A stretch of 55,746 nucleotides of DNA, filler included, from Jimgerdemannia flammicorona (Eukaryota): the NCBI GenBank assembly GCA_003990765.1. It is 2 parts of 2 records of this genome, joined end to end, with 100 filler letters (N's around TTAATTAATTAA, not from the genome) between each part and the next. Parts side by side here need not be neighbours in the genome. Positions count along the whole stretch, not along the records: positions 27,933 to 55,746 come from RBNJ01000597.1; 1 more part is not named here. One strand, given 5' to 3'. The notes beneath the pieces are model-generated. The model saw only the letters and a program-made list of their open reading frames with translations. It was not told the DNA's origin and made no database searches. This document shows positions 4,501-55,715 of the stretch, in pieces. Position 1 is the stretch's first letter. Every line of letters begins with the position of its first letter. A program made the translations under genes and the position numbers.

Positions 4501-4599
4501 CTCAGAGCACACCAGAAGCAATGACAGAATCCAAGAAGAGACAGAGACACTGGGAGAGAACCATACCAAAGAGAAGTTTAATAGTGGGAGGCCTTCCCC

Positions 4600-8092: not shown

Positions 8093-8382
8093 CTTCTTCA
8101 CTACCTTACTAATCACAATGGTTTGGTAGACAATCTTCTGAGTCTACTTTCCACAATTATTACCCTCTCTACCTCAGGTTGATTTACTATACCTATTGTA
8201 GGGCAGTGAAAGAGAGGCAATAGTGATGAGTTTCCTCTTTATCAGTGTCAGATTAGTATCTTTTCTACTTTTTCATGGTTTTTAGTACCTTTGGCTGTAT
8301 CTGGAGTACATCTGTTTTAGTATAGTGCTTTCTTCCTTTTACCATCACTAACAAGGTGCTGTCTTGATATATCTCAGACTAT
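8093..8382 (+). mobile_element. Non-autonomous retroposon copy 2, 5' part (split by Gypsy-1)
   Basis: Matches 24255-24545; continues at 17178; TSD aatatttattgtgt (8079-8092) / aacatttattgtat (18119-18132). Confidence 0.85.
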
Positions 8383-8607
8383 TGTCATGTAGTGGTCGCT
8401 GAGTCCTTCAAATATGCCAGATTCTCTTCAAGGTGTATCTCTTAGACTAACTCAAGTTGTTATAAGCAAGTTCTTATTGGAGTGCCTTCCCAAGGTCTTA
8501 TAGTCCTCAAACTTCTTATCTTTAACTGTCTTGTTATCTCTTAGATTGCTTGCAAGGGATTGTATATTGCACTGAGAGGAACTGACTTTATTTCAGAGGA
8601 AATAAGA

Positions 8608-8620
8608 GGGGTATTTATAC
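8608..8620 (-). promoter_or_regulatory. Candidate LTR TATA box (gtataaatacccc)
   Basis: Lies downstream of ~34-bp tandem repeats (8690-8825) in element sense; a similar motif gtacaaatacccc is at 35278 in the solo LTR. Confidence 0.5.
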
Positions 8621-8827
8621 AAAATATAATTCAATGGTTGCTAAGATATAAAGCTAAATATAAATTCCAATAACTAAACCTACTGAGTTCCAGGGCTGGC
8701 ATTATTTAGTATCACATCAAAATGCCAGTGCTGGAACAATTTCGCGTCACCTCAGAATACCAATGCTGGCATTATCCAGTGTTACATGAGAATACTGGTG
8801 CTGGCATTATCCAGTGTAACAAAGAAT

Positions 8828-9685
8828 TTAGAGCAAAAAGTTCAGGATCATGGGGGCTTCATCATCATCATCATCATCATTACTGAAGGAGATGAGATCC
8901 GCGAATTCGTCATGTAGGTCACGCATTTCGCATACATTGTATGCCTCATTGTGTGGTTCACGTGCTTCAGGTATGTCACACGGGGTGACGTCATCGATGA
9001 CATCATCACGTTCGGCTGTGGCAGAGAAATCGGGAACAAGATCTGGAGCTCTCCAGTTTATGAGGTTCTCTTCCACAAAATAAGGAACAAATGTGGGGTC
9101 TTGGGGAGATCTAACCCGGATGCTTGGGCCTTGGAATACTGAGATCAATCCTTACAGGAATTGGTCTGGGTTGTCCTGAAGGATAGGGTACCAGAAGTCT
9201 TCTACTTCTTCGCTGTTGAGGGTGATGGTGGACTGGGCTTCTGTAGCTACTCTGGCTTCTAGTGCATTGATATGGCGGGATGACAGGTCTCTGAAATCTG
9301 AGACTCTAACATACTCCAAGTTGGGGATCGACCATGGTGCATGCCTGAAGATCTGATGGATCTTCTTTGCTGTCCTTGCCTTACATAGGTCCATGGGAGT
9401 AGCATCTTGTAGCTCTTGAGGGCTGGCGTGTGGGAACTCCTGGCAGAGGAGGTTTCCTATTTCATATTCCTGCCACATTTGGAGGCATTCGGTGGCAATG
9501 GTGATCCTTGTTTCCATTTCGTGGCAGTAGAGAATAAAGTAATAGGGGTCTGCAGTACCCAGGCTGATGCTAGGAGTCCTTCTTGAGCGGGTCCTCATGG
9601 CTCTTCTGATGTCTTGGAACATCCTTTCCTCGACCGAGATACCTTGATGATTCCTTGACCTTGAGGTTTGGTGGGCAGCAGGCAT
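8828..9685 (-). pseudogene. LTR(U3)-encoded accessory ORF, ~285 aa, one internal stop
   Basis: ORFs 9152-9685 and 8828-9148 are in frame across one TAA. The 5' LTR copy reads QFLQELISVF at that site. Confidence 0.8.
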
Positions 9686-9928
9686 TTTGTTTGTGGTAAG
9701 TCTTTGAGCTATTTTTGGGATTAGTGGTTCTTGTTAGTTACTGCTACTGCAGTTCCTTGATCCTTCTTTTATATTCTTCAGGATGCTTGTGCTGTGGTCA
9801 CAATGACTCACAGTTGGTCATCATTGCTCATCTCATATGCCGTATAATCTTCTTGTACTCCGATCTGGTGGCTTGTAAAGAAAGGCTATCTCCTGTGCTG
9901 ATGTCATCATTCTGGGGTCACCATTACA

Positions 9929-9939
9929 TCTTCCTCCTG
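9929..9939 (-). other. Polypurine tract
   Basis: caggaggaaga immediately before the TGTAATGG start of the 3' LTR. Confidence 0.75.
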
Positions 9940-15628: not shown

Positions 15629-15631
15629 AGT

Positions 15632-17177
15632 TGTCACATAGTGGTCGCTGAGTTCTTCAAATATGCCAGATTCTCTTCAAGGTGTATCTCTTAGACTAAC
15701 TCAAGTTGTTATAAGCAAGTTCTTATTGGAGTGCCTTCCCAAGGTCTTATAGTCCTCAAACTTCTTATCTTTAACTGTCTTGTTATCTCTTAGATTGCTT
15801 GCAAGAGATTGTGTATTGCACTGAGAGGAACTGACTTTATTTCAGAGGAAATAAGAGGGATATTTATACAAAATATAATTCAATGATTGCTAAGATATAA
15901 AGCTAAATATAAATTCCAATAACTAAAACTACTGAGTTCCAGGGCTGGCATTATTTAGTATCACATCAAAATGCTAGTGCTGGAACAATTTCATGTCACC
16001 TCAGAATACTGGTGCTGGCATTATCCAGTGTTACATGAGAATACCGGTGCTGGCATTATCTAGTGTAACAAAGAACTTAGAGCAGAAAGTTCAGGATCAT
16101 GGGGGCTTCATCATCATCATCATCATCATCACTGAAGGAGATGAGATCCATGAATTCATTATGTAGGTCGCGCGTTTCGCATACTTCGCATGCCTTGTCA
16201 CGCGGTTCATGTGCTTCGGGTATGTCATGCGGGATGACATCATCGATGACGTCATCACGTTCGGCTGTGGCAGGGAAATCAGGAATAAGGTCTGGAGCTC
16301 TTCAGTCTATGAGATTCTCTTCTACAAAATAAGGAACAAATGTGGGGTCTTGGGGAGATCTAACCCAGATGCTTGGGCCTTAGAATACTGAGATCAATTC
16401 TTGTAGGAATTGGTCTGGGTTATCCTGAAGGATAGGGTGCCAGAAGTTTTCTACTTTTTTGCTGTTGAGAGTGATGGTGGACTGGGCTTCTGTGGCTACC
16501 CTGGCTTCTAGTACATTGATACAGCGGGATGACAGGTCTCTGAAATCTGAGACTCTAACATACTCCAAGTTGGGGATCGACCATGGTGCATGCCTGAAGA
16601 TATGATGGATCTTCTTTGCTGTCCTTGCCTTATGTAGGTCTATGGGAGTGGCATCTTGTAGCTCTTGAGGGCTGGCATGTGGGAACTCCCAGCAGAGGAG
16701 GTTTCCTATTTCGTATTCCTGCCACATTTGGAGGCATTTGGTGGCAATGGTGATCCTTGTTTCCATTTCACAGTGGTAGAGAATGAAGTGATAGGGGTCT
16801 GCAGTACCCAGGCTGATGCTAGGAGTCCTTCTTGAGTGGGTCCTCATGGCTCTTCTGATGTCTTGGAACATCCTTTCCTTGACCGAGATACCTTAATGAT
16901 TCCTTGACCTTGAGGTTTGGCAGGTAGCAGGCATTTTGTTTGTGGTAAGTCTTTGAGCTATTTTTGGGATTGGTGGTTCTTGTTGGTTGCTGCTACTGCA
17001 GTTCCTTGATCCTTTTTTTATATTCTTCAGGATGCTTGTGCTATGGTCACAATGACTCACAGTTGGTCATCATTGCTCATCTCATATGCCATATAATCTT
17101 CTTGTACTCCGATCTGGTGGCTTGTAAAGAAAGGCTGTCTCCTGTACTGATGTCATCATTCTGGGGTCACCATTACA
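15632..17177 (-). repeat. Gypsy-1 5' LTR, containing the second copy of the U3 ORF (~16077-16934)
   Basis: Direct repeat of 8383-9928. Confidence 0.95.
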
Positions 17178-18046
17178 TTATATAGAGAGTTGGCTGATCT
17201 TGGGCATCAAGTACTCAGTGTAGGTTACCTACAGGTCCTCAGTACCTGTGGTGGGGCCCTCTGGCTTTGGCGAGCTTTCTAGTGAGTGCAGTTCTAGTGT
17301 AGATAACTGCTTTTTGGATATTGTTGGGATGGAAGAGAAGATGGCCATTATAGATAGAAGGAAGGATGATAATGGTGAACCAGTAGGGTACTAGGCTGGG
17401 GGCAGTTGTTAGGGCTGGGGCAAATGCTGCTTCAGTGGGGCCTTTTTATTAATACAGAGTAGTTAAGTGATAGGTGTTACTCTCAACTTCTTTTAGTAAT
17501 TCAGCAGATTGGGCCCCAATCATTAAGGAGAGTCAGGGGGCCCAAGACTACCCATTTCAAGCATCTTGGCTATACTCAACTAGAACTGAGAGCTAATACA
17601 ATAATATAATCAAGGCCTGCAGACTTAAGTAGTGAAATATTAGAGATCTCCTCCCACCTCATGTGTAAGTCTTTTACTCATCTCATCTAGGAGAACCAGG
17701 TCTTATCCACTATAATGTACTTTGATGAGGGTTTTTTCTTTGCCTGTCATTCTTTTTGGTTATTCTATTTGGCTCAGACATAGCCTTATATATATATACA
17801 TTGGAGTCTTGGGCATATACTTTCAGTCATTAGCATATGGCTGAGTTCTCCCTAATGATAGAGAAAGCATAGTATGCAGAATGAGGTACAGGCCAACATA
17901 GGCCCTACTGTATCTGGTATAGTTGAGCTACTAAACAATAACTAGCCTAGGTTAATAAGGGGGCAATGCTTAATGGGTGGTGGAAAAAGGTTTTGGCCTA
18001 TATAGTCTAGGTTTCCTTTCAATAAAAATTCGCAAGACATTGAATC

Positions 18047-18120
<74 letters not shown>
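17178..18120 (+). mobile_element. Non-autonomous retroposon copy 2, 3' part with ~70-nt poly(A)
   Basis: Matches 24545-25440; aataaa signal near 18021; poly(A) 18051-18120. Confidence 0.88.
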
Positions 18121-18121
<1 letters not shown>

Positions 18122-19074
18122 ATTTATTGTATTATCAAAGGAGATTTGCTCTACCAGCTCAAACTCCTCATAAATCAACTCCTTGTAATTGCTTACTATT
18201 CATTGAATCAAGTTCTATATATATGAATATTAAACATGAGTAAAGACAAACATTAACACATTTGACAAAATATTAGAATATGCATGCTTACTCTGAATTA
18301 TAGTATACATTTTGCCATTCATACAAAATCTGATGGGAAGGAGGATGATATCGAGATTGGAACTTAAAATTTCTCCACCTCTGTATATCCATACTATCCA
18401 TTTGTAAGATATACCATAGAAAAAACATAGAAATAAAACCAAGAGTTCAGAAGCCCACTGTATGGCAGCTTTCTCAAAAATTTGATAGTAGCAGCCTGCT
18501 GTTTCTTGCAAGCTTCAAGCATAACTCGGGTGAGCACTAAATGGCAATCTTATAGCAAAACACTGAGTCCAATTCCATTGGTAACATTTTTTTTTAATTT
18601 TCCAGGAGAGGCTCTAATGTTAGCTATAACACTAAATTCACAGCCCCATTACAGATCTGGACCAAAGGCATAAACCTTTGCATTGTTTGGAAAATAAATA
18701 AATCACTCAGCCAGTTGCTTTATATTAATGGTTATGATTTTACTGCCACAACTAGATCTAGCTTCCCGAAATTATAGTATTAATAAAATTAATTAATCTA
18801 CAGTAAATAGCCAATCACAATTAATATCTCTCACTTAAGACAAAATTGCAACTTTGAAGTTTGATGGTATGGTTGCTGATAATGCTGTCAATATTGATAC
18901 CATGAATGCTTTTCTAAACCTAGATGACCATGATTCAACTTCTCTACTAGCAAACATAGTGAGATAGATATTATTAAAAGCAATAGCATTACAAAAGCAA
19001 TAGTAAGAAAGAAGATACCTACTAGTGGACATTAAGATATTTATATATATATTTATAGAGATAGATGTTAAAAT

Positions 19075-20393: not shown

Positions 20394-22524
20394 AGAGATG
20401 GATGTTAAAATTAACATCGATGTCTCTTTCTGAGTTTGCACGAGTGGTGAAACCGGAGTCGATTATCTCGACGCTATACAATTCGGTAACAAAGCATAAT
20501 GAGCATAACATAATTCGGTTAAACTTAAAACCGGATGCGATATGTATCTACTTGTATCTCAACAGGTCCAGAATGTACTCCACGTCTGGGTCGTCGCAAT
20601 CCGAAATATCGACTGATGAGTCCTGGCTTTCCTTTTCAACTGTAAGCTTCCTTTTGGTTTGTCGATTTTTCCGCTTTCGATTAGGAATTTAACAGCTCCT
20701 TCCGTACCCCTTTCAAGCAATCATTCTCGCGAGATTGGCTAATGTGGAAGAGTCAATCTAAAGCATATAAGAGCAGAGACAGCCTTAAGTTGAATTCAAA
20801 AAGCCATGCAAAAACAGCATTTTGCTACCTTTAAAAAGGTCTGAAGTATCCTTTCCGAAGAAATGCTCAGCTCTCGCCAGTCGTCATCACCGTCTATGTT
20901 TTTGAGACCGCTGAATATTTCGTTGCGCAATGCCGCGTACTCGTCCGGTGTTAATATCCTACTCGGGTGGAAGGTAAGCATTGGTTGCCCCTCTGCTGGA
21001 GGGCTAATGTCGGCAATTTTTCGTCGCAGAAGGGCTGTATGAACATATGTTGTGTCAATTCCTACATTTCATAGTTTAATAACAAAATGGAAACAGTACA
21101 ATTGCCACATACCGATCTGTGATTATCTCGGGTGTGTTTTCAATCAGGTTTGTGCGTACATCTTCCAACTTGTTCAACCACGAAGCATTTCCTTCGGGTT
21201 GTGAAAATAATACCCTGGCCACATCTTGGTCATCTTCATCTTCATCTTCATCTTCATCCTTATGGTGAGGCAAAATAAATCGTTAAGACATAAAATTTGC
21301 TCAAAAAAAAGTAAAAAAAAAAAATTGGCCAAAAAAAAAAAAAAAAAAAAAAAGAAAGAAAGAAAGGACAACAGAAAACAAACCTCATCCTTGTGAGGTT
21401 CACGCAATCGTTTTTTAGCTGATTCGCACGGTGATTCGTCACTGTCGCTTTCATTCTCATCACCATGGATCGTGCCGTGAGACCTTTTCTGCCTCTATGA
21501 ATGAGAATGTAATTTAGTCACGTAGACAAGTGTTTTCTTGGTATATTCACCACGACTTGATTTACCTTTACTCCCTCTGATTTCCTTAATAATTCAGTAC
21601 CACTATTAATTGCTCCGACGATCCCTCCTCCAAAAGAGCTGCCATGGATAAACCCTCCAAAAGAGCTACCATTACTAAATCTTGGTCGGTATAAGTGCAC
21701 CGAACTAGTGGTGTTTTCACCACTCTTTTCCCATTTTTGGGCCAATTTACGGTCATTTTCCTAGATATGGAATATATAGAATTTAGTAATATTCAAAACT
21801 AATATCTCATTCTCTGTCTGATTTTCCATCCCACCGGTTACCAGCGTTGGGTCCCCGCCCAAAGGCTCTTTCAACAGGCAAACTCGAAGATCACCTGCCC
21901 CAACGCTGGGTGAAACATTAGGCAAGCTAGTAGGTCACCTATGCCCCGATGGGGCCAGTGCCGGGTCGACTAGTAGTCTTGAACACAGGCAAGCTAGTAG
22001 GTCACCTGTGCCCCAACACTGGCATTGTGGCTCAACTAATAGTTTTGAATGGCAAGGAAGCTATCAGGTCCCTCCCACGCCACTACTTTCTATTTAACAT
22101 TCAACATTTCAAGGGAAAAATCACTTGCCTTCCTATAGTTGTCAATAAGCAGCTGTGCTTTTTCTTGTCTCCTGCCTTGCTCAGTATTGGCAATGATCTT
22201 GAGGCTTTTGATGTATGAATCCAACTTCTGTTTGAGTGGCCCCTCCTGTCTGTTCTCATTCAAGAACCCAATAATGTCCCATTCCGTAGACTTGCGACTG
22301 AAGTAAGTATCCTTGACTTTGGACATGGACGCGGGCAAAGTAATAGATTAGATTGATAAAGATAGTTGTGGATCAAAGTCAAACATTCATGAATCTTACC
22401 AGGACAATTAGACATCTGGTGGTGGATGGATAACGTGAATGAGCAGTAAAATTAACTACAAGCATTGTGTACCTTTGTAGTCAAGTTCGAGGGCACTTTA
22501 TTACACACAGGTATGATCAGATAC

Positions 22525-25440: not shown

Positions 25441-25565
25441 ATATATATATAGGGGTATTCTTATATATATTCTTCAGCAACAACACCTTTCACTGGTAAC
25501 TTTCAGGTGACACAAGATTTGGACAACACTTTCCGCGAAGTTTTTGGTGAAAAGCTACTATCAAC

Positions 25566-27485
25566 ATGGCGAGCAACGAGCATACTGGTGGGCAGGTCGG
25601 CCAGGGGGGCAGCCAGGCCTTCGACTGGCAGCAGGTTGGGAGGAAACGAGGAGATGGTTTGAGGATGCCAGGGCCGTCTGTGGTGGGCGGTGGCGCTGGA
25701 GGAGGAGGGAGAGGCAGACTGAGGCAGAGAGGTGGGGGGAGGGCGACCTTTGCTGATAAGGTCAGGATGGGGAAGATGGCCGCAGGGCTGGATGGTTGGT
25801 TGGGACTGGGGAAGGCGATGCCGGGTTCAGTAGGAGGGCAGGGAGGACCCCCCATGGGAGCCTCAGTCGGTATGGGGGGAGGGGGAGTAGGGGTTGGAGA
25901 TGTGACTGCTGATGGGGCTGTGACGGGGAATCTGGAAAAAAATCCAGATGTGACGGTGGTTGACGGATCCAGTCAGAAGGAGGGCATGAGGTCCGGGGAC
26001 CTGGCTGATGGCGTGACAGGCATGGTGTCGGCACCGTTACTCAAAAAGTCGAGGTCAGAATTCGCGGTCACATTGTGTTTCCGAGGCTTGGTGGTGACTG
26101 CGAGGATGATCCTGGGGCTGGTGGCGCAGGAGGTGAAGGGGGCAGCTATGGTCAAGTTCATGAAGGGGAAGAAAGGGATTGAGGTTGGGTTTGAAGAAGA
26201 GGTGTCAATGCTGGAGGCTATGGAGAAAGGGGTAGTAGTGGGTGGAGTGGTAGTTTCTATGGCGAGGTGCATGCGCTGGGACCCGAGAGTGGTGCAGTTG
26301 ACAGTGCTGGATCTTCCTACGATGTCGCGGGAGAGGGCTAGGGAGTTGATTGTGGGGGTGGTAAAGGAGTATGGGGATGTCATTGATATCGGGTTCAAAG
26401 TCTGGGAGGGTACGGACCTTAGGACTGGCGACGTTGATGTCAGAGTGCGCTTGTTTGGTTGGGAGAACACGGGGAAGGCGAGGGACTGGCCGGCGACACT
26501 GAAGTGGGGACCAGTTGAGTGTAGGGTCTCTCGGGTAAAAGGGATGCTGGAGGAAGAGGAGAATTTGCTGGAGGCTCTTGAGGATCTGACGGGAGCTGTC
26601 GAGAGGAGACGATTGGCTTGGAAGGAGTATGAGGCCAAGACGGTGGTGGAAATTGTAGAAGGGAAGAAGATCAGGATGGATCGAGGAGCTTGGGAGAAGA
26701 TGCAGGGGAGGCGTATTCAGAAGGAGCTGCTGGAGAAATTGGGAGGTGGCATGGTGGAAGGTGGAGAGGGAGGAAGTGGCATTGGATCGAGGGAAAGTGA
26801 CTGGGCTGGGGAGCCCAGAGTGGATCAAAGGGTGGCCCAAGAGGTCCATGGGGAAGGAGGGCAGAGCGGCGTGGTGGAGGATGCTGAGATGAGCATAGAA
26901 GTACAGCCACAGTACAGGGTCCCGGGAGGAGTCGGAGGTGAGGAGGAGCTTCTTGATGTCCTGGAGGAGGAGTGGGATGAGTCAGGAAGGAGGATCGCAG
27001 TGGTGGACCCAGTGGTTGGGGGGGAAGGGAGTGCCCAGGGTGCCGAGGCAGTGGTGGAGGAGGAGAAGTGGCTGTGGAAGACTCTGGAAGGGGTGGCAGC
27101 TGAGGAGCTAGGAGGTGAGGACTTCCAGGTTATAAGTGATAGGCACTGGGAGAAAATTCTGCGTGGTGAGGAGGTGCCACAGAAGGTCCGGAATGAAATT
27201 CTGGCGGTGCTCCTGGAGTCGGTGGAGTATCAAGTTGATGATCAGCGAGAGGAGGAACTTCGAGTGATTGCGAATGATCGAGCAGCTTACCTGTGGAACT
27301 CGAAGAAAGGGTTGGAGAAGTGGGGTGTAGTGTACAGGGAGTATCGGACCGAATTCGAAGTAGTGGATGGAGCAGAGTGCCAGGAGATCTTGGAGGTGCT
27401 GGATGCACAGGAGGTGATGGAGGACGAGTTGGAGGCTGAGCGGCGCCTGGATATGGAGGGGGACAGGAGGAGCATAGAGTTCTAG
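25566..27485 (+). CDS. LINE ORF1 protein (639 aa; RRM-like central region, acidic C-terminus)
   Basis: Intact ORF directly upstream of the APE ORF; contains LTVLDLP...VVKEYGDVIDI...LRTGDVDVRV. Confidence 0.8.
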   Translation: MASNEHTGGQVGQGGSQAFDWQQVGRKRGDGLRMPGPSVVGGGAGGGGRGRLRQRGGGRATFADKVRMGKMAAGLDGWLGLGKAMPGSVGGQGGPPMGASVGMGGGGVGVGDVTADGAVTGNLEKNPDVTVVDGSSQKEGMRSGDLADGVTGMVSAPLLKKSRSEFAVTLCFRGLVVTARMILGLVAQEVKGAAMVKFMKGKKGIEVGFEEEVSMLEAMEKGVVVGGVVVSMARCMRWDPRVVQLTVLDLPTMSRERARELIVGVVKEYGDVIDIGFKVWEGTDLRTGDVDVRVRLFGWENTGKARDWPATLKWGPVECRVSRVKGMLEEEENLLEALEDLTGAVERRRLAWKEYEAKTVVEIVEGKKIRMDRGAWEKMQGRRIQKELLEKLGGGMVEGGEGGSGIGSRESDWAGEPRVDQRVAQEVHGEGGQSGVVEDAEMSIEVQPQYRVPGGVGGEEELLDVLEEEWDESGRRIAVVDPVVGGEGSAQGAEAVVEEEKWLWKTLEGVAAEELGGEDFQVISDRHWEKILRGEEVPQKVRNEILAVLLESVEYQVDDQREEELRVIANDRAAYLWNSKKGLEKWGVVYREYRTEFEVVDGAECQEILEVLDAQEVMEDELEAERRLDMEGDRRSIEF

Positions 27486-27832: not shown

Positions 27833-27932
27833 NNNNNNNNNNNNNNNNNNNNNNNNNNNNNNNNNNNNNNNNNNNNTTAATTAATTAANNNNNNNNNNNN
27901 NNNNNNNNNNNNNNNNNNNNNNNNNNNNNNNN
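27833..27932. other. Artificial contig-join spacer
   Basis: N-run with central TTAATTAATTAA, which gives stops in all six frames. Confidence 0.9.
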
Positions 27933-27940
27933 AAAAAAAA

Positions 27941-28401
27941 AAGAAGAACTCATCACTAGTATAATTCTCAGTGAGTTTATTCAGGAGGAATCAATGCCAC
28001 TCTCTATTTCCAGTAAACCTGTACCCACATTAAGGTATCCAGAAATCACATACTTTTGGAGATTGTCATGCTACACAGTGATCATATGTCACTTAAGAAG
28101 AAAACTGCTAAATTACCAGAGATCATTGCACTACATTGAAATTATCCACTACCCAAGAAGGCGACCACTTGCACCACATATCCATAAATCACTGCTACAC
28201 CCAGAGAACTATCCCAATATGGAAATTGACACATAAATCACTCACAGATATCCAGCTTTGACTATTTTACCACTGAACATCAATAAGGACACCAGAATCT
28301 TAGAAAATTTTATTGCTTTTAACAAAGTAACTGGGAGCTTAAGCCAAACTACATCAACCCCCAACCTTGTAATTTGCCTCCATTGAGCCAGGCATGTTAC
28401 A
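27941..28401 (+). repeat. Gypsy-2 5' LTR (3' part only)
   Basis: Homologous to 42245-42349 joined to 47828-48217; ends in CA before the PBS. Confidence 0.85.
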
Positions 28402-31077: not shown

Positions 31078-33703
31078 TAAATTGGAGATGAAGATGAGCA
31101 TTAGGGATAGTGGAAGAATGAAGAGAAAGAAAATATAGATAGGTATATGAATATAAGAGCAGAATGCATCACTCGACTAATAGCTCAAGATTTGAATTTC
31201 ATAGTCAGTCAGACCAGCCACTACAGCATCAGATACAGCATCTATCCAAAAACTATATCCAGTATAAAGGCGAGGATTAAGACCAATTCAAGGTAATAAG
31301 GATCACAAGTGGTCCACCAGCCAATGCCAGGAGAATGCCTACTGGTTGGGCAGAGAAAAGAGCAGAATGGTGTCAGGAGCCAGAGAGGAAAGGAATAGCC
31401 AGCAGAGCAGGGCAACAATGCAGAAAATGCTGGAGGGTGTCCACAGGATATAGATCAAGATGCTATGATGGAAAGGATCAGTCTTAAAAGAGGGAAGAGT
31501 GAGGATGATATAGGAGGGAAAGGTAAGGGAGGGGCAGAAGGACATGTAATACCAGGATATATATATAGTGGGGTCAAAGGGGTGGTTGCAATTAATTTCT
31601 CCAGACCAGAGGCAACCAAAGTAAGTGAGTATAATAGTGGCCACAAATATGAGATCAGAGATATTACCATTCAGTTAGAGGTATAGGAGTAGGCAATAGA
31701 GGCAGTCAGATGTGAAAGGAAGTTGGGGTTATATAGAGTGAGTACCCAGCCACCATTTGATGTGGTGAAGGACTCTGGGCAGTTATTGAAGCCCAACTAG
31801 CAGATCAGGCAGGCCAGAGTCAATGTGAAAAGAATGAATAACAGAGAGGTACTTCTTGATGGTGGTTGGTATAAGGTGATGCAGGGCCAGTAAGTAGATC
31901 TAGTGCATCAATACTAGCTTGAATGTGGGGAGGGTGGGATGGTCAGTTGGAGTGTGAAGGGTGCAGAATTAGTGGAAGCTCTGCTGGCCAGATGAATATA
32001 ATCAGCATGTCAAACTTGCCAGTCTGAACTAAAGGAAGAAGACCATGAGGGGTGGAAGGTGAGAGTATCAGTGGAGCCTATCAGTGTTGGGAGTAACTAT
32101 ACAGAGGGGGCTAGAGAGTAGAAATAGGCCATATCAGCATATAAGAGGGTATCAGTGATGCCATTTTCTTGAGATGAGAAATATGTTGCACAGAAATGGA
32201 AGACATATTGAGCCATCAGCAGAGAGACATACTGTAGCAGTTTAAGGAGAGTGGGGTTAGTAGTGGTGCCAGAGTTAATGATGTGAAGGATGGCCTAGTT
32301 ATTGGTATGGAGGAAGATGCAGTGGAAAGTCCAACATGGGCTCTATATGGCAGCAGTCAGAATGACTGCATATAATTATTTGAATTGAATATCAAGATGT
32401 TGTCTTGTGGAGGACTAGGGGGAGGTAAAGTATTCACCTTCAAAGTAGGTATCCAGACCTATATTACCACTAGCATCTGTCCATATATGAGCATCTGGAG
32501 CAGCTGTCTAGTCCACAGAGTGAAAAACTGAAATGCCATTTCAGCATGATAGAAATGTGAGCCACCATTGAATATCAGCCTGGAATTCATAATCAAGCAG
32601 GATAGAAGAATGGTTGCTTATCAAGTAATTGATAAAACATCATAGGAATAGACAGTCTGGCAGGATAATTTTGCAGGCAAAGCTCAATGACCCAGTGAGG
32701 AATTGAAGCTATAGTCAAGAGTAAAAGCATTGGAGGGGCCAGTAGTGGAGCTTGTCTAAGATACCAGTGAGATTCTCAGCTGGGAGGTGGGCCTCCATAG
32801 CATCCATATCTAATTTGATATCTAGGAAGATAATATACATCAATGGGCCAACAATTTTCTGTGGCTGCATTGACTATCCAAGGTGGTGGCAGAGTTAAAG
32901 GAACTGAGAGAGATTGAAAGAGGCAAGTGGAAGATCACTGGATAGTGAAGCAAGGATAAAATTATCTATATAATGAAGGAGATGATGGAGGTCTTGATGG
33001 TGGGCAATTCATGTGAGCCATTTGGCAAAGATGTTGAATAGGAATGGGAATGAGCTGGTGCCAAATGGGAGGCAGCAGTCAAAATAATACTGACCCAGCC
33101 ATTTGAATCTGAGAAATTCTCAGTTGGAGGAGTGGATGTGTATGTAATGGAATGCATCAGTGAGGTTGACTTTAGATAGTAGGCAGCCCAAGCTGAAGCA
33201 CTGAATAAGGTCTAATCTATTGTTGAAGTATATGTAAGATATGCAAAATACATCTATTTCAATACCAGCATTGATGGAGGGTCTATGTCAAGACCAGAAG
33301 AGGTTGTGGATGCATTGCTATTTGAATGATGAATTCTTCTTATTGACTATGCCCAGGGGTGAGGAGTGGAATAAGGGAAATGGTGGAGTTGAGAATGAGC
33401 CACATATGATCTGCTGCTACCTTCTAAGTGATATCTATAGAGACTGCCTCAGCATGAGTGACCACAGATTGGTGATTAAAGCTGATATGATGATATTGTG
33501 TATTTTCAAAGCCCATGAGAATGCCTTGAGAGATGGTATTGATAGTAGCATGAGTGAGGTCCTGGTCTGAATATGTAGTAAGAGCTTGTGATCAGACAGA
33601 AGGCTGAAGGGCAGTTGTGACTGGAGGGAAGAGAGCCTGGATTTCAGAGGAAGCAGTGTCAAGGGGCTTAGAGAAGGGGTGATGGAGAAAGGTGTTTGGA
33701 GCC

Positions 33704-35766
33704 TGTAAGCACATAACCTCCAAATCACCGAAATTACACATCACCCTCTGAACAAGCCACTGAAATCACACATGACCTCTGAACAAATCTAGAAATCACC
33801 TGCTTGATCACAAAGCTGAGTCAAACTGAAGTCACAGCATTCAAAGCTGAGTCAATATGAAGTCACAGAATATAAGAATTACACAAATGGAATCTTACCA
33901 ATCAGGATCAAATGCATATATATGGAGCACTGAGATATGTCGAATCAGAGAACCAAAACAAAAAACAACTACAACTTCCAAACACACAAACATGACTACT
34001 GAGATCTATACTAATATCCATGCTGATATTTGAAATGCCATTGTCAACCGAGCCACACCCCCTCTGCCCCTCATGAATATTCATAGCCTAGCACCCCTCT
34101 ACTTCGTGGAAGCCTGATGGAATGCTCTGAACATGCTTAGCAAGGCCCACCGAATCAGACAAATCTCAAGCTACTACCAGATCAGTCACCACCTGAAAGA
34201 CATGATCGAATACTACCACAATACCAACATTACCCAGATGTCTCAACACCAGAAGCTCATTGCCCACAAACATTGAGAACTCTTCTATGAGTACAGTACC
34301 ATTATTCCCTGCCTCTGTGTTACCACCAGCAAAATGGTTGCTATCCTGTCCTATGGCCAAATCGATGACATGATACAAGAACTCAACCACAAGTACCTCA
34401 AGTACGTCGAAACCACAGACAGAACTTTCCCACACCCCAATGATCATATCCTGCAAATGCCCCAAGTTGGATATGCCATGAAGGATATCTATGATATAAT
34501 CCAATTCGATGAAGACGAAGCAGAAGACAATGATCTCTCTGATGCTGATATGACCTCTAGCCAAGGATCTCTGCCAACCCTGATCAAACTGCCAACCTTG
34601 CCAATGAACTTATAACAATTTATAACAGCCTACAAGACTTATTGTGACAATGACCACTGGCACAAATACCAACCTGCATTCACCCTCAATTACTTCAACT
34701 ACAATGAAGAGACCAGAGAATACAACCTGTACCTCCAGACAACCCTTGAGATTGAATGAACCACTCCACCACCTAAGTATGAGCAACATGAACCACAGCC
34801 ACCAGCTTACTACAATCCCACAACTCATAGTGCTGTAACCTACAGAAGGTATACAGATGGCGAATCTGACAAAAGTGAAGATGATGCACCCCTCCTTCGC
34901 CCACCAACACCTTATCCAGCATATGAGACAGACGATGCCATCTTGTGGAATAGAGACAAAGTTCTAATGTATTATTACCTCAGCGAACAAGGAGAAGTAA
35001 TCCATGAACCACTCTTCTTAGATAACTACTTCATCGGAGATGATACAATCAATGGTGATATCATTGAAGACTACCCAGACAGTACCTAAACCATAAATAG
35101 CCTAAGCAGTCATAGTATAGTTAGATTGGCCTTGTACAACGTGACTGTGAACTGACTCAGCAGTCAGATGATATCTTGATATATCAGATCACACTTGTAC
35201 TATGTGACTGCATTCCAACTCAGCAAGGCACTTAGTGCTACATCCAAATTCAGCATAGTCCAGATAGCCCCTCACTAGTACAAATACCCCCTCCCCCAGA
35301 CCTCAGAATCTCAGACTCGAACACACAAGAACATTTCTGAATACTTCCCCACAATATCCCTTTATACAACTACTTCTAGTATAGAAATATCATGAATAGT
35401 AAATAAACCTATTCAAATAACCCACAAATCACTCTTAGGTAAATCCACTCCCTGTTAGGTCCCACTCCTAACCCCATCGAGAAATTTCCTAATTGGGTAT
35501 TGTCTGCAGCGATATGCCAATTCAACTAAGCTGGTCTTAGTTTCTTGAACTTCCTGAAATATGGAAAATCCTGAACATTCAGAACTAGTCCAAAAAAGGA
35601 CTTTGGTTGAGATGTCAACCCGAACTTGAAATCAATAAGTGTAGAGGATGTACTCCATATGAAATTAATCTTGACCATAAGAAAACAGTCTTCCAGAATA
35701 TCCAGAACTTCCAGAAAACCTTTCCAGAACTACATAACGGTTACCCTAAAAAGCAACCCTCTTACA
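33704..35766 (+). mobile_element. Solo LTR (2063 bp) inserted in Ngaro-1
   Basis: TGTAAG...CTTACA terminal inverted 6-mer and perfect 5-bp TSD GAGCC (33699-33703 / 35767-35771). Confidence 0.88.
33992..35089 (+). pseudogene. Solo-LTR-encoded accessory ORF (~365 codons; TGA stops and probable frameshift near 34590-34625)
   Basis: MTTEIYTNIHADI*NAIVNR...APLYFV...RQISSYYQISHHL...LIAHKH*ELFYEYSTIIP, alignable with the Gypsy-1 U3 ORF. Confidence 0.72.
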
Positions 35767-37569
35767 GAGCCAGGTGGAGAGGGGTATTGCTATTGGGTAT
35801 CACATAGTCAGGGGCAAGTTCCTAGGGTTGTTTCAAGGGATTGTTGGGGCAGTTCATCCAGGAGTGGTCAATGCTATATTTTAAGCATACATATGTATAG
35901 ATATACTTATACTGGAGGCAGCCAGGATCTTGCATTGGGGTGTCATTGAAGAGAGATCCATTGTAGTTGTGGCACACCAGTGGGATTTTGGAGGAACTGG
36001 GGCTGTAATTAGTGTGAGTTGAGCAAGAGATCTGGTGTAAGTGAGACAATGCTTTGGAAAATAAAGCTGCAGTAGAAACAGATACCAGTGGCTTCAGATG
36101 GAGACTCAGGGACATGAATAAATCAGGGTTATGTTTAGCCCAATGGCAGCACCATTTAGTCAAAATCTCATCATGAGTGACTTTGGCAATGTGTTTGTTG
36201 TGGAAGAAAATATGGTGATTGAGGAGGGCATATCAGAGTGACATTTTTGCAAGAGAGATAAAGTTGATAGTGTAAGAGAGGAATGATGTGGGTTTAGTCA
36301 GATCTGGGTAGGTATTGTGGATGATGCTGAAGTAGGTTAGTAAACTAGAGATGAAGGTGGGGATGTCAGAGAGGTCCTTAGATAGAGATATAGCTTTCTT
36401 GGTGATGATGCATGTGCCCAAATCCTCCAGAGATTCAAAAAATTTGTTGTTCCATGTCAGAACTCCTTATGTCAGGTGGTGTTCCAGTAGCCAACCAAGT
36501 ACTGTTGCTGGGACTGTCTCAAGAGACACAAGTGCTCTGAGTACTCCACCAAGATCAATAGAACAAGGAATTCGCCTGGTACAGCATGCCCAGAGTACAG
36601 AAAGAAGAAGAAGAAATGTAGACATGTTTCAGAAACACCTGCAGCTGAAGCTGCAGAAGTATAATCAAATTGGGGTCAAGACTCATCTGAGAAAAAAGAA
36701 GCTTCTGATCAAGAAGTTCCTTAAAAAGAAGCACCCAAAGAAGAAGAGACCACTGAACTCATTCTCTGAGATAACCCTTGCTGGATACCACCTGAAGACA
36801 ATGACTCTTGGAATATAGAAGAAGGACCCAGCACAATTCCTATTATTCCTAAGAAAAAAACTCACCAAGAGAAGGCACTTCAGTTAGAAAGATATCTATA
36901 CCAAATGGTCTTCCACTCTTTCTGTGGCTACTGCTACCAGTACCATCTAATAGACCAATAGGAGAGACAGAGACCCAGATACCAGAACCCCCAAATATAG
37001 TTGTACAGTCAACTACTTTCCAAGAAGTTACCACCAAGTTGCAAAGCCAATTCAGAGAACAAGTTCTCTTCACCTGAACAGAAGTATACCCCTTGTCCAC
37101 TCTTCCCCCAACTTATGATCAAGATGGATACTGATTCCTGAGAAAACAAGAGATCAATAACCAGAAACTATATTTTCAAGTAATCAGATATTGCAACTAT
37201 AAAAGACACCCAGACTACTGAGACTGTAGATATCAAAAGATTCATCTCAGTCATTATGTTGCAATCCACACCTTGAAGAGAGGAGATAATAGAGGCTAGA
37301 TCAGAAAAAGCTAGACCAAGAAGCCAGGAAGAAGAACTCTCAAGATCTGATTTAGGAGAAGATATTCTAGCTCTCACTAGATATGCAACCCATCAAGAAT
37401 GGGTAGAGGATGCCACCAACTTCATGGAAGCCCTAGACCCTATAGAAAGAAGAGAAATCAACTATCTCTGAGTTCCCTCCACTGTAGCCAGATGGCCACA
37501 CCTCAACCTCAGAGTCTGGAGGCTCTCTGCTAGTGGAGCTTCAGCCCTAGGATAGCCTGAACTTAGTAA

Positions 37570-47827: not shown

Positions 47828-48217
47828 TGCATACTTTTGGAGATCATTATGCTAAAAAGAGATCACCTATCACCTAAGAAGGAAACCACTAAATTGCCAG
47901 ATCATTACTCAAGAAGAAAACCACTAAATTGCCAGACATTATCACACTTTACAGAAATTATCCACCACCTAAGAAGGAGACCACTCATCCCATATACCTA
48001 CAAATCACTGCTATATCCAGAGAACTACCCCAATAAAGAAATCAATACACAAATTACTTACAGATATCCTACTTTAACTATTATACTACTGAATATCAAT
48101 AAGGACACCAGAATCTTAGAACATTTTGTTGCTTTTAACAAAGTAACTAGGGGCTTAAGCCAAACTACATTAACCCCCAACCATGTAATTTGCCTCCATT
48201 GAACCAGACACATTATA
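47828..48217 (+). repeat. Gypsy-2 3' LTR, right part
   Basis: Matches 28048-28401. Confidence 0.85.
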
Positions 48218-50458
48218 GTATCATTAAATTGCTTGGCTATACCATTTTTCTGAGGTATATAAAGAGCTGTCATCTGATGGCTTATGCTATATTTTATCAA
48301 GAATTTTTTGAATATATTATTGATACATTCATATCCATTATCTGAGTATATAGTACATATTCTATATCATATTTAATTCTCAGCAATTGCTTTGAATTCT
48401 TTGAACTTCTCTATAACTAGGCTCTTCATCAATGGAAAATATACATATTCCTTATATAATTATTGATAAACAACAGAAAATATTTCTTACTGGAGTATTA
48501 TAGAATACACATTAGACTGCATATATTGGTGTGGATGAAGTCAAGAATCTCTGAGGCATACTTCAATTATTCTTTGAATGCTTACTAGAAAGCTTTGTTT
48601 TTCATACATATCTTATAAAAGTTATTCTCTGGATATATATATGCTGGCAATTCACTCATCAAGCTACTACTTATCAAATATTTGAGGCTTGTCTTGCTGA
48701 TATGTTCTAAGTATTGATACCATATTATGGATATATCAGACATAGTTGTTATATAAGTGAAGGCTTTTATGTTATTCAGTATTCTATTAATTATATAAAG
48801 ATTACCATATTTTGAGACTGTCATCATCTTGTTATTATATAAATCATATACTATAGAACTCTTTGAATATATATAGATCTCCTTATTATTACGAGTCTTT
48901 ATTTTATCTTTAGAGAAGAGGTTCTTTTCTATCTTCAGAGTATACAATATATTTACAAAAGTAGAAGCAGGCTCAATAACATTGCTCTAAAGATGTATCC
49001 CTATATTTTCTTTTTCTTGAGTGTAGATGATATTATTATCTCCTTATTTGATAGGTATAGGATAAAAAAAGGCTCATATTTAGAGAACAATTTCCTATAT
49101 AGTATTATATAATATGTATATGGCTCCAGAATCCATTAGCCAGACATTATTATTATTAGATATATTGGCAGTATATTTATTGGATATATGGCTGATATTA
49201 TTACCACCTTTCATTAGATGAAAAGTATTTTGCTTTTTCTGTTGACCAGAATTTGTTGATAATGGGTAGGTGGATTTAGTAGTAGATCTTGTACTGATGA
49301 AATTGGCAGTAGAGCTGATAGCTTGTACATAAAATAGATTACTACTTCATTAGTTTCAGTAGTATTTGCATTATCATACTTTTCTTGATAGATTATTCCA
49401 CTATTCCTATATTGCTAATGTTGGCCTTTTTCACTCTTATTTTTAGTACTCTTCTTGTTATTTTTCCAACTATATAATGCTGCTTCCTGTGTTCATACTT
49501 GGCACAGTATTTATAGTAACTATTATACTTGGTTGATTGATTGATAGGCTGGTTATTACATTTGTTGAGCTTAGAGTTGAGTTCATCCCCTTCAGCCTTA
49601 TTGCTCATACTTTTGACCTTGTTTAGCACCACATTTATGAGATCTATAGAAGGTATTTTTGTCATCTTCAGCAGTACTATTTCCTAGGTGCATTTTGTCA
49701 TTTATGAGACTTATTATTATATAGGTATAATCTATGAGTCTACTACTCTCATATAGTCACTACTATAATAATACATATCTGAAAGTCCTTTTGTGAGTAC
49801 TATAACCTTGTCTTCATTCTCAATGCAATCCACAGATGCAGTGAGGGAATTCATTTGATTTACCAGACCATCAACATAACTGGCATATTCATAGATATTC
49901 TTCTTAGACTTCATTTGAAGATTGAATAGCTGAGCTTTCAAGTGAAACTGATTTGATGCAGCTGTTTGGACATGATGATTGTATAGGACTTCTCATGCAT
50001 TATGAGTCAATGATATTACAAGCTTTATTAGATAATTTAACAATATAAATATAATCTTACATAATGCTCAGTGATTATTTGTAGTATCATAATCTTGAAT
50101 TAGTACTTGTAGCTTCATATACTCTGCCAAGCTGCATTTGTCAAGGAGATTTATCTTATAAAATACTCAGATCATATAATCTTTCCCATCTAAGATCAGG
50201 ATGGACCTCTTGGCTATATTTACACTTATAACTAAAACTGTTTTTCCTATACCTATTAAGGATGCAGGGGAACTTCGAAATTGCCTGCTTAAATTTGTGG
50301 CTTTGAAAATGCAATCTGACTCAGGACTGACCAGACTGACCTTGATTTGGCAGGCAGCAGTCCAGCAGTCTGGCAGTCCAGTGAGACAATAGTGACGAGC
50401 CTTCATTATGAGCAAGCAAGTGATGGTATTCAGTTAATAATAATATAGTATTCTGACA
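48218..50458 (-). mobile_element. Ty1/Copia remnant (gag-PR-IN), cut in the integrase where Gypsy-2 ends; possible 5' LTR ~50184-50458
   Basis: LKAQLFNLQM...EDKVIVLTKGL (gag), WLMDSGA (PR), IWYQYLEHIS (pre-integrase), SDNGYE...YIPQKNGIAKQFNDTI (IN). LTR bounds are low confidence. Confidence 0.8.
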
Positions 50459-54709: not shown

Positions 54710-55490
54710 AATGGATGGGTAAGATGGCAAGATGGCAAGATGGCAAGATGGGCAACATGGGCAAGATGGGCAAGATGGGTAAAACGACACAGGCAAGACA
54801 GGTAAGATGGGCAAGACAGGCAAGACAGGCAAGACAGACAAGACAGGCAAGACAGGCAAAATGACAGGGGCAAGACAGGCAAGATGGGTAAGACGGGCAA
54901 GATGGGCAAGACAGGCAAGACAGGTAAGATAGACAAGACAGGCAAGACAGGCAAGATGGGTAAGACAGGTGAGATGGGCAAGATGACAAGATAGGTGATA
55001 CAGACAAGACAGGCAAGATGGGCAAGATGAGTAAGATGGGTAATACAGGTGAGATGGGCAAGACAGGCAAGATGGCAAGATGGGCAATATGGGCAAGACA
55101 GGCAAAATGGGCAAAATGACATTGGCAAGATGGGCAAGATGGGCAAGATGGGCAAGATGGGTAAGATAGGCAAGAAGGGTAAGACAGGCAAGATGGCAAG
55201 ATGGGCAACATGGGCAAGCAGGCAATACGGGCAAAATGACACAGGCAAGATGGGCAAGATGGGCAAGATGGGCAAGATGGGCAAGATGGGCAAGATGGGC
55301 AAGATGGGTAACACAGGCAAGACAGGTAAGACAGGCAAGACAGCAAGACAGGCAACATGGGCAAGACAGGCAAAATGGGCAAAACGGGCAAGATGGGCAA
55401 TATGGGCAACATAGGCAAGATGGACAAAATGGGCAAGACAGCAATATGGGTGACATGGGCAAGACAGACAAAATGGGCAAAACGACATGA
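54710..55490. repeat. 9-bp minisatellite (GGGCAAGAT / AGGCAAGAC) with higher-order variants
   Basis: ~780 bp array; variant (ggc)aaaaYgac recurs near 54780, 54856, 55111, 55231 and 55478. Confidence 0.92.
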
Positions 55491-55715
55491 TCTATGAGTA
55501 GATGTTACATACATTGTTTACATCCTTCACCTATGAGTGGGTTATGGTACATTTCTGTGGGTATTACAGAACACTTTCCGACCCATGAAAATTCCTAGAT
55601 AGTTGTAATTCTGGGTTATATATAGTTCTAGTTTTTTGCATGCGTTGTATTGCTTTTTTATTCTAGTTTGCATTTTATTGCAGGTTTCAATTCTTTTTTT
55701 GGAGTATGTGTTGTA

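Follow-up and report, generated by a model that had tools for sequence, protein, structure and literature searches.

We analysed a window of 55,746 nucleotides of Jimgerdemannia flammicorona (the whole stretch of DNA, filler included). Positions 33704-35766 of the window are a solo LTR of a repeated family, with the following features:

33704..35766, plus strand: solo LTR of 2063 nt with a 6-nt terminal inverted repeat (TGTAAG/CTTACA), placed by sequence, depth steps and contig joints
33699..33703, no strand: left target-site duplication GAGCC, placed by sequence and by an empty-site contig with 5 shared bases
35767..35771, no strand: right target-site duplication GAGCC, placed by sequence
33721..33799, plus strand: 32-nt tandem repeat of about 2.5 copies near the 5' end of the LTR, placed by sequence

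TGTAAG occupies 33704-33709 and CTTACA 35761-35766, with GAGCC on both flanks. The depth, joint, loose-end and empty-site data come from contigs of other samples and not from the genome of the window; in the four public runs X1, X2, X3 and X5 the depth rises from about 3 to about 900 at both ends of the LTR. In X1, the values on the two sides of 33704 are 13 and 870, and those on the two sides of 35766 are 1219 and 1. One contig joint in the public runs ends at 33704, and loose contig ends are found at 35764-35766 in three of the four runs (X1, n=3; X5, n=2; X2, n=1). The first-pass annotation had described a solo LTR with these ends and this duplication: both are confirmed, an empty site is seen in one X1 contig that links 33698 to 35767 with 5 bases in common, and the depth steps, the loose ends and the joint show that other copies share the same TG..CA boundaries. 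The parent LTR retrotransposon would have been inserted with a 5-bp duplication, and recombination between its two LTRs would have left the solo LTR.

The contigs with loose ends continue past the last base of the LTR into PBS-like ACT-TGGTAGCAGCGG or a near variant. Neither the window nor viral contigs contain a match to the PBS-like string. The sole hint of a PPT is a purine-rich stretch of 30 nt before 33704 in one contig. A second copy of the solo LTR is not found in the 55.7-kb window, which also contains no tRNA genes.

Reading frame of the solo LTR

The LTR contains a long, decayed frame in sense orientation (P0001), whose stops are listed with the residues found at the same place in its relatives:

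33851..35089, plus strand: decayed ORF frame P0001 of 413 codons, with in-frame ATGs at 33857, 33887 and 33992 (the relative P0010 begins at 33992)
34031..34033, plus strand: in-frame TGA, X61, Trp by comparison with P0010
34115..34117, plus strand: in-frame TGA, X89, Arg by comparison with P0010
34274..34276, plus strand: in-frame TGA, X142, Arg in P0010; most other copies have C at 34274
34613..34615, plus strand: in-frame TAA, Gln by comparison with P0004
34757..34759, plus strand: in-frame TGA, X303, Pro in P0004; other copies have CC at 34757-34758

P0001 is interrupted by five internal stops (four TGA and one TAA); the two remaining forward frames have 19 and 34. Its relatives are open: P0004 (247 aa) is 62% identical, differs by two in-frame indels and has the same end point, and P0010 (128 aa) is 79% identical. 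When neutral drift to equal divergence was simulated for the pair P0001/P0004, 5 of 300 simulations were free of stops and none of the 300 reached the observed conservativeness. Judged from its open relatives, with their in-frame indels and conservative replacements, the frame was formerly coding. It had been proposed that the TGA stops read as Arg once CGA is restored; since the relatives read Trp, Arg, Arg and Pro at the four TGA codons, this applies to X89 and X142 and fails at X61 and X303. The fifth stop, the TAA that is Gln in a relative, lies outside the TGA-to-Arg scheme. The further suggestion of a standalone gene copy does not hold: with five stops, and with the sole promoter-like motif located downstream of the ORF, the copy in the window is, on its sequence, a pseudogene and not a working standalone gene.

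Concerning known families, a Pfam scan at E up to 1 returned only a chance-level match for P0001 (PF23040, E=0.22) and none for the Gypsy-1 LTR ORFs P0002 and P0003, while a sequence search of the PDB gave no match for A2 and only chance-level ones for A1 (E=0.33). HMMs of A1 and A2 revealed no additional copy in the six-frame translation of the window. With P0001 or A1 as query, no relative was found in metagenome contigs or viral contigs; A2 likewise found none in viral contigs, and a search with A1 among proteins of 30-69 aa only gave no match. Outside Gypsy-1, the window has 83 further ORFs of 90 aa or more; Pfam was run on 40 of them, with a single weak copia-type match.

The A/C-rich, G-poor strand (A 729, C 544, T 485, G 305 in the LTR) would lower the frequency of stops, so that the long frame might be a by-product of composition rather than a gene. 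Skewed parts of the window do hold other long ORFs without a Pfam match, and the ORF of the LTR itself matches nothing in Pfam or PDB. We nevertheless consider this explanation very improbable: a single sense frame is open, with five stops against 19 and 34, the relatives at 62-79% identity are open and share the same end, and their conservativeness exceeds that of neutral drift. In the Gypsy-1 ORF family, a block of 70 residues is also near-invariant over seven sequences; there, the simulation of neutral drift for P0002/P0006 gave 11 of 300 stop-free sequences, and 14 of 300 reached the observed conservativeness.

Layout of the solo LTR and of the Gypsy-1 LTRs

The window also contains the Gypsy-1 element (domain order gag(CCHC)-dUTPase-PR-RT-RH-IN), both LTRs of which carry an ORF. 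The features used for comparison are:

35131..35225, plus strand: two 32-nt direct repeats, 63 nt apart and 75% alike, lying after the stop of the ORF and before the TATA-like motif
35278..35290, plus strand: TATA-like motif GTACAAATACCCC; with the T found at 35281 in other copies it is the exact 13-mer of the Gypsy-1 3' LTR
35402..35407, plus strand: AATAAA of the solo LTR, placed by sequence
8383..9928, minus strand: Gypsy-1 3' LTR, with the ORF at 8830-9700 (P0002), four 35-nt repeats at 8695-8821, GTATAAATACCCC at 8608-8620 and AATAAA at 8587-8592
15632..17177, minus strand: Gypsy-1 5' LTR, with the ORF at 16079-16949 (P0003), then, in the sense of the element, ACT and the PBS-like TGGTGCCCATTGG at about 15628-15611

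Both ORFs are in sense orientation, upstream of GTAYAAATACCCC and at the same position in the LTR: from the LTR start to the DI motif the distance is 321 nt in the solo LTR and 315 nt in Gypsy-1. The layouts had been described as matching. The order of ORF, direct repeats, GTAYAAATACCCC and AATAAA is indeed common to both LTRs; the repeats of the solo LTR, however, are not a tight tandem. AATAAA follows the TATA-like motif at a distance of 124 nt in the solo LTR vs 28 nt in Gypsy-1. Within the window, the 13-mer GTATAAATACCCC with up to one mismatch is confined to the solo LTR and the Gypsy-1 LTRs. The ACT spacer before TGG is common to the solo LTR family and Gypsy-1, whereas their PBS sequences and LTR lengths differ. 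As reported earlier, the two LTRs lack nucleotide similarity (best blastn match E=0.064 over 29 nt, off register). The description of the solo LTR as unrelated to Gypsy-1 is not supported: the small common features, namely the TGTAA start, the ACT spacer, the identical TATA 13-mer and the common ORF offset, agree better with diverged LTRs of a single lineage than with a gene carried in unrelated LTRs.

These data also bear on the nature of the 2-kb unit. If the unit were instead a non-autonomous element, complete in itself and of another class, that ends in TG..CA and is flanked by a 5-bp duplication, this would agree with the fact that our searches recovered neither an internal region nor a partner LTR of the solo family. 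This reading would have to account for the several contigs which run from the last base into the PBS-like ACT-TGGTAGCAGCGG, where the PBS-like part starts with TGG, for a terminal inverted repeat of just 6 nt, and for a TATA-then-AATAAA layout like that of the paired Gypsy-1 LTRs; of the readings considered, it has the slightest probability.

Comparison of the two ORFs

The region of P0001 which aligns to the Gypsy-1 LTR ORF consists of two segments:

34004..34324, plus strand: N-terminal, helix-predicted domain, residues 52-158, aligned to the Gypsy-1 LTR ORF by hhalign, MAFFT and permutation tests
34493..34540, plus strand: DIIQF followed by an acidic tract, the second hhalign match, to DLISF and the acidic tract of Gypsy-1 (P=0.27)

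Homology of the two ORFs had been claimed from aligned peptide blocks. All eight quoted blocks are found in their places, and the register of the claimed alignment was recovered independently by hhalign and MAFFT. The significance of the block alignment against shuffled sequences depends on the test: unrestricted tests are not significant, and significance is reached once the register is fixed by the LTR offset.

Looking at the unrestricted tests, BLASTP of the window copies gave a best E=2 (E=5.2 for the claimed block), and the observed Smith-Waterman score was reached in 361, 151 and 300 of 1000 shuffles. The best hhalign match joins residues 52-158 to residues 23-131 in the claimed register (P=0.042, probability 1.2%), its score being equalled in 7 of 226 column shuffles; the profile of the solo family behind it contains three sequences, and the N-terminal domain is covered by two of them only. 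The second hhalign match, with the acidic-tract block, is collinear with the first. The MAFFT alignment is in the same register, contains two small gaps and has 15 columns that are invariant. A different alignment, the top one by BLASTP, was rejected: hhalign pairs the C-terminal extension of the solo ORF with the central block of Gypsy-1 at P=0.099 over just 15 acidic residues. Among intact proteins, the best BLASTP pair is P0010 and P0005 (E=0.008), and P0010 vs P0006 gave E=27. A phmmer search with P0001 across 1.84 billion representatives returned no member of the Gypsy-1 family, and P0005 and P0010 share no cluster in the Atlas. The Atlas neighbours, which are leads only, are Basidiomycota hypothetical clusters for P0005 (0.86) and assorted viral and bacterial clusters for P0010 (0.93).

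The claimed register is the single diagonal on which both ORFs lie equally far from the start of their LTR, and with the register so fixed the P values are lower. The same-offset band ranks second among the distinct bands over 643 diagonals; its score was reached in 32 of 2000 shuffles for the window copies, and in 1 of 2000 each for P0010/P0005 and P0010/P0006. Under joint column permutation of eight cross-family pairs on this diagonal, the observed mean was reached in 2 of 4822 permutations; the register was noticed once the alignment had been seen, and corrected for about 70 independent bands P is about 0.03. The intact P0010 scores 36-49 on the same-offset diagonal and the decayed window copy 25-30, which is the pattern predicted by homology and not by chance.

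We give an appreciable, though minority, chance to the explanation that the ORF of the solo LTR is real, specific to its family and unrelated to that of Gypsy-1, the likeness being due to chance and to common constraints on LTR design, namely the space of the end sequence, then coding, enhancer repeats and the TATA motif. It is consistent with the weak results of the unrestricted tests, the lack of a common Atlas cluster, the different PBS and the LTRs without nucleotide similarity, and also with the later parts of the proteins (residues 231-412 of the solo ORF and 148-267 of Gypsy-1), which do not align. It is less easily reconciled with a best alignment that falls on the diagonal of the same LTR offset, with the higher scores of the intact P0010, and with the fact that MAFFT and hhalign converge on a single register of about 120 residues with almost no gaps. 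In addition, one genome would by coincidence have gained a long sense ORF twice, independently, at the same LTR offset. In the AlphaFold models, the first 140-190 residues of both proteins are predicted as helical, an unspecific feature, and with pLDDT values of 30.5 and 36.4 the two folds are not comparable.

Taken together, homology with the Gypsy-1 ORF is suggestive (unrestricted P 0.02-0.04), and strong only in the register of the same LTR offset; the Gypsy-1 ORF at that offset is probably remotely homologous to the N-terminal domain of the solo ORF, which spans about 125 residues. The reading we hold to be rather likely, from these sequence comparisons, is that the solo LTR and the Gypsy-1 LTR belong to diverged families of one lineage with a common, old accessory ORF upstream of the TATA-like motif.

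Proposed working and relation to known systems

The LTRs of the solo family carry a sense ORF of about 400 codons, kept open in the family; lying upstream of the TATA-like motif, it would be in U3, a placement we infer from that motif alone. The genomic transcript of a full element would contain only the ORF copy of the 3' LTR, at its 3' end; the message for translation would be subgenomic or spliced, or would start at a promoter in the LTR's first 250 nt. By reverse transcription the ORF would be copied to both ends, and each solo LTR would retain one copy. The predicted protein, with a helical N-terminal domain, an arginine-rich start (in Gypsy-1) and an acidic C-terminal half, would most likely be a trans-acting factor in the expression of its own element or in the handling of that element's RNA.

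If two families which do not align at the DNA level share a gene, that gene would be of long standing and would benefit the element. It would be overlooked by annotation pipelines that assume LTRs to be non-coding, and solo LTRs, usually deemed dead remnants, would still carry copies of the gene. The LTR ORFs of the solo family and of Gypsy-1 also give a concrete orphan protein family with a candidate role in retrotransposon expression. More doubtful is the broader proposal that a Ty3/gypsy lineage, probably fungal, kept a U3 accessory gene for so long that the LTR DNA of its daughter families stopped aligning. If true, this would be the retrotransposon counterpart to retroviral U3 genes, with two gene copies per integration and one per solo LTR, and hundreds to thousands of LTRs would form a reservoir of one orphan protein with a helical domain and an acidic tail, perhaps transactivator- or Rev-like, acting on the TATA-adjacent repeats or on the RNA of the element.

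Retroviral genes within or overlapping U3 include MMTV sag, HIV/SIV nef and foamy virus bel/bet. To our knowledge, long sense ORFs inside LTRs are textbook cases for a few retroviruses only, and a full-text literature search (partial coverage, exact wording only) returned no report of one within the LTR of an LTR retrotransposon. As in these retroviruses, the 3' LTR would hold a sense ORF upstream of its promoter, and after integration both LTRs would have it; unlike in them, the ORF has no match to a retroviral family in Pfam (E up to 1), its host is not a vertebrate, and the parent element is, in the case of Gypsy-1 at least, a Ty3/gypsy retrotransposon that lacks env. An MMTV Sag-like superantigen was considered and rejected, as the chance-level PF23040 was the only Pfam match in that scan.

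Among LTR retrotransposons, unrelated lineages of bdelloid rotifers share types of ORF3, according to the available part of PMC5408684. In both systems an accessory ORF other than gag and pol occurs in more than one LTR-element family per genome, and dUTPase-bearing elements are present. The rotifer ORF3s, in that part of the source, are separate ORFs with homology to enzymes or membrane proteins, none of them placed in an LTR, whereas the present ORF is inside the LTR and without a known family. Ty3/gypsy elements with a dUTPase are described from basidiomycetes and Tuber in the accessible portion of PMC2864245; the dUTPase domain of Gypsy-1 (Pfam E=7e-24) is N-terminal of the protease, as in some PosPlaTy3 families there, and that portion does not mention an ORF within the LTRs. 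A figure in PMC2864245 marks an 'add. ORF'. Concerning the divergence of LTRs, PMC10787394 reports that the subfamilies of the Podospora crapaud LTR differ above all in U3, in front of the TATA box, with the layout kept, which resembles the diverged LTRs and preserved layout of the present families. The crapaud LTRs in that text are 339-443 bp long and non-coding, whereas those compared here are 1.5-2.1 kb long with a U3 that would be mostly coding.

Boundaries and repeated family of the solo LTR

Both the solo LTR and the ORF it carries are real. The sequence was read from 33600 to 35900, and the coordinates proposed by the first-pass annotation are confirmed by the ends of the LTR and the flanking duplication:

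33704–33709 (+): TGTAAG, start of the solo LTR
35761–35766 (+): CTTACA, end of the solo LTR
directly outside the LTR, on both sides: GAGCC, target duplication

A second copy of the 2063-nt unit was not found by self-comparison of the window. Small shares of the window are present in eight public sequencing runs (six from soil metagenomes, two from 'organism A'), and the contigs from four of the eight were compared with the window at a likeness of at least 80%. Run X1 gave 2962 matching contigs (313 at ≥99%, 731 at 95–99%, 1328 at 90–95% and 590 below 90%); as the contigs come from other samples, they show that a family with these boundaries exists and give no copy numbers for the genome of the window. 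The summed contig depth in X1 is 13 before and 870 after the bin boundary adjoining 33704, and 1219 before and 1 after that adjoining 35766; the same steps are seen in the other three runs compared. An empty site is represented by one X1 contig, in which 33698 is joined to 35767; five bases fit both sides, matching the GAGCC duplication in size.

Beyond the last base of the LTR, contigs (three in X1, two in run X5 and one in run X2) show ACT-TGGTAGCAGCGG or a close variant of it. The part after ACT starts with TGG and reads like a primer-binding site (PBS), which would mean that full-length elements with the same LTR exist or have existed. One X2 contig has a joint exactly at 33704, with 30 purine-rich nucleotides before the LTR start. 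In this contig the ORF is matched to 34501, followed by 30 other letters (their end purine-rich), after which the LTR restarts at 33704; the copy may be rearranged or nested, or the contig may hint at an internal 3' end of the element that resembles part of the LTR ORF. Direct repeats of 304 nt (28091–28394 and 47907–48210, 84% alike, 19.8 kb apart) lie on either side of the solo LTR, which may be nested within a larger, older element.

Coding status of the LTR ORFs

The frame of the solo-LTR ORF (33851–35089, conceptual protein P0001) spans 413 codons, five of them internal stops, against 19 and 34 stops in the two remaining forward frames. Relatives were sought by a word-indexed search and by exhaustive phmmer over 1.84 billion representatives, and both found very few. 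P0004 (247 aa, uninterrupted) is 62% identical to P0001 residues 162–411, with two in-frame two-residue gaps and the same end point; P0010 (128 aa, uninterrupted) is 79% identical to residues 48–175.

Internal stops of the solo-LTR ORF and the residue in the relative
34031: TGA; Trp
34115: TGA; Arg
34274: TGA; Arg
34613: TAA; Gln
34757: TGA; Pro

Most compared contigs have C at 34274 (349 of a depth of 403 in X1) and CC at 34757–34758. The TGA stops had been taken for decayed CGA (Arg) codons; this holds for only two of the four (34115 and 34274), the relatives having Trp at 34031 and Pro at 34757. With its five stops, the window copy is a pseudogene which cannot make the protein, and the proposal that this solo LTR leaves a standalone gene copy therefore fails.

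The ORF in the LTRs of Gypsy-1, the neighbouring Ty3/gypsy element, has five database relatives with 57–84% identity to the query (BLASTP), of which P0005 and P0006 are full length and open. A block of about 70 residues is almost invariant in this family, and length changes in the acidic region are in-frame. Between the two copies in Gypsy-1 itself, 13% of residues differ, and the copies have one and three stops; this is the decay that neutral change since insertion would bring. Neutral drift was simulated from the window DNA to the observed divergence, with 300 runs per pair.

Neutral-drift simulation (pair; mean stops; stop-free runs; runs as conservative as observed)
P0001/P0004; 4.1; 5/300; 0/300
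P0002 (Gypsy-1 3' LTR copy)/P0006; 3.0; 11/300; 14/300
P0002/P0008 (Gypsy-1 family); 2.2; 35/300; 5/300
P0001/P0010 (short pair, uninformative); 1.1; 93/300; 75/300

Based on the open relatives, the in-frame changes and the drift simulation, both ORFs are real coding sequences kept open within their families. No relative in Pfam or the PDB was found for either family.

Probable kinship of the two ORFs and of the two LTR families

The two ORFs had been proposed to be homologous, and the unrestricted tests of this are weak. Between the window copies, the best BLASTP match has E=2 and the claimed block E=5.2; local alignment scores were reached in 361, 151 and 300 of 1000 shuffles for three choices of stretch, and a semi-global alignment of stretches chosen from the claim in 17 of 1000. 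Comparison of the three-sequence solo family with the seq­uences of the seven-member Gypsy-1 family by hhalign gave P=0.042 and a probability of 1.2%; its score of 21.6 was reached by 7 of 226 column shuffles (reversed profiles: 19.1 and 18.8). The phmmer search with P0001 did not reach the Gypsy-1 ORF family, no Atlas cluster is common to both families, and the AlphaFold models of the two proteins (pLDDT 30.5 and 36.4) are unusable.

The alignment register of the first-pass annotation, on the other hand, was found again: the top hhalign match has exactly this register (106 columns, 120 without realignment), and MAFFT independently arrives at it, opening two small gaps and keeping 15 columns unchanged throughout both families. 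The second hhalign match is collinear and joins the acidic-tract blocks (DIIQF and DLISF, each followed by acidic residues; P=0.27). On the diagonal of this register, the two ORFs are equally far into their LTRs, LTR start and DI motif being 321 nt apart in the solo LTR, 315 nt apart in Gypsy-1. Among all 643 diagonals, scanned in bands, only the acidic-tract band (38) outscores the same-offset band (36); shuffles reached the same-offset score in 32 of 2000 cases for the window copies, and the pairs P0010/P0005 and P0010/P0006 gave one such case each, also in 2000. The family-level test used joint column permutation, chosen to respect relatedness among the sequences, and took two of the three solo-family and four of the seven Gypsy-1-family sequences (the other four, P0004, P0007, P0008 and P0009, do not include the N-terminal region and were therefore excluded). 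The observed value over the eight cross-family pairs was reached by 2 of 4822 permutations; the offset coincidence was noticed only after the alignment had been seen, and allowing for about 70 independent bands the strong P becomes about 0.03. The intact P0010 scores 36–49 against the Gypsy-1 family, and the decayed window copy 25–30; by BLASTP, P0010 matches P0005 with E=0.008 and P0006 with E=27. The register, the LTR offset and the better score of the intact relative count for homology, which is plausible but draws on thin families and an after-the-fact register argument. The N-terminal domain of about 125 residues is probably homologous; solo residues 231–412 and the Gypsy-1 central block 148–267 do not align.

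Concerning the LTRs themselves, the features of Gypsy-1 are:

8382–9929 and 15631–17178 (−): LTRs by self-comparison, 93.8% identical
8383–9928 and 15632–17177 (−): exact LTRs, termini TGTAAT..ATGACA

No clean target duplication surrounds Gypsy-1 (TATAA before the 5' LTR, ATAGT after the 3' LTR). Nucleotide similarity between the solo LTR and the Gypsy-1 LTRs was not found, the best match (E=0.064, 29 nt) being off register. The order of parts, previously described as the same layout, is indeed common to both (ORF, direct repeats, GTAYAAATACCCC, AATAAA), but the number and spacing of the repeats differ (in Gypsy-1 four units of 35 nt, in the solo LTR two of 32 nt which lie 63 nt apart), as does the TATA–AATAAA distance.

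Comparison of the LTR families (feature; Gypsy-1; solo family)
LTR length; 1546 nt; 2063 nt
TATA to AATAAA; 28 nt; 124 nt
PBS-like sequence; TGGTGCCCATTGG; TGGTAGCAGCGG

Within the window, the 13-mer GTAYAAATACCCC is found with at most one mismatch only in the three LTRs; position 35281 is T in all other copies compared, which makes the 13-mer identical to that of the Gypsy-1 3' LTR. Both LTRs start with TGTAA, and in both families ACT and then TGG directly follow the LTR. Each of these small features is weak taken alone. Rather than a gene carried by 'unrelated' LTRs, they fit better two old, diverged LTR families of one lineage.

Possible function, related elements and surroundings

Genes within U3 are known from retroviruses (MMTV sag, nef and bel). 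Both ORFs lie upstream of the conserved TATA-like motif; if this is the LTR promoter, the ORF would be in U3, the genomic RNA would have it at the 3' end and lack it at the 5' end, and reverse transcription would copy it to both LTRs. Expression would then proceed via a subgenomic or spliced RNA, or from a promoter within the first 250 nt of the LTR; the Gypsy-1 LTR has a TATA-like AATATAAAAG about 155 nt from its start. Alternatively, a transcription start upstream of the ORF would place the ORF within a very long R. Both proteins are net acidic with acidic C-terminal halves, the Gypsy-1 N-terminus is arginine-rich, and AlphaFold predicts helices over the first 140–190 residues of both with low confidence. 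Our best, though tentative, guess is that the protein acts in trans, serving the transcription or the RNA handling of its own element.

The host is probably, as a tentative assignment, a soil fungus. In the Atlas, P0005 lies closest to clusters of basidiomycete hypothetical proteins, at a score which serves as a lead only. PMC2864245 reports gypsy elements with a dUTPase in basidiomycetes and Tuber, and a figure of that paper draws an 'add. ORF' which could bear on the novelty of the LTR ORF. A full-text literature search by exact wording for ORFs inside retrotransposon LTRs gave nothing relevant; the closest concepts found are ORF3 types common to unrelated rotifer LTR lineages (PMC5408684) and the U3-specific divergence of crapaud LTR subfamilies (PMC10787394).

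The surroundings of the solo LTR are degraded repeats. A Pfam scan of 47 ORFs other than the three LTR ORFs gave matches for three: the two pol ORFs of Gypsy-1 and a fragment at 48588–48986 (−), where a weak match to PF13976 (GAG-pre-integrase, E=1.3e-4), which falls short of the curated cut-off, suggests a copia-type element. Direct copies of 2.3 kb at 274–2565 and 3914–6188 (79% alike, 3.6 kb apart) contain long minus-strand ORFs (335 and 249 codons) without a Pfam match; they may represent a further family with long LTRs, or two LTRs in tandem. An open frame of 644 codons, also without a Pfam match, is found at 25551–27485 (+), with 52–55% G+C and a strong G-over-C skew; two stretches of 44 N (27833–27876 and 27889–27932) lie just beyond it. 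Arrays with a period of 8–11 nt are present at 17983–18148, 21254–21391 and 54714–55506; several frames are open in the last, which reads as PSC/LPI-type repeats.
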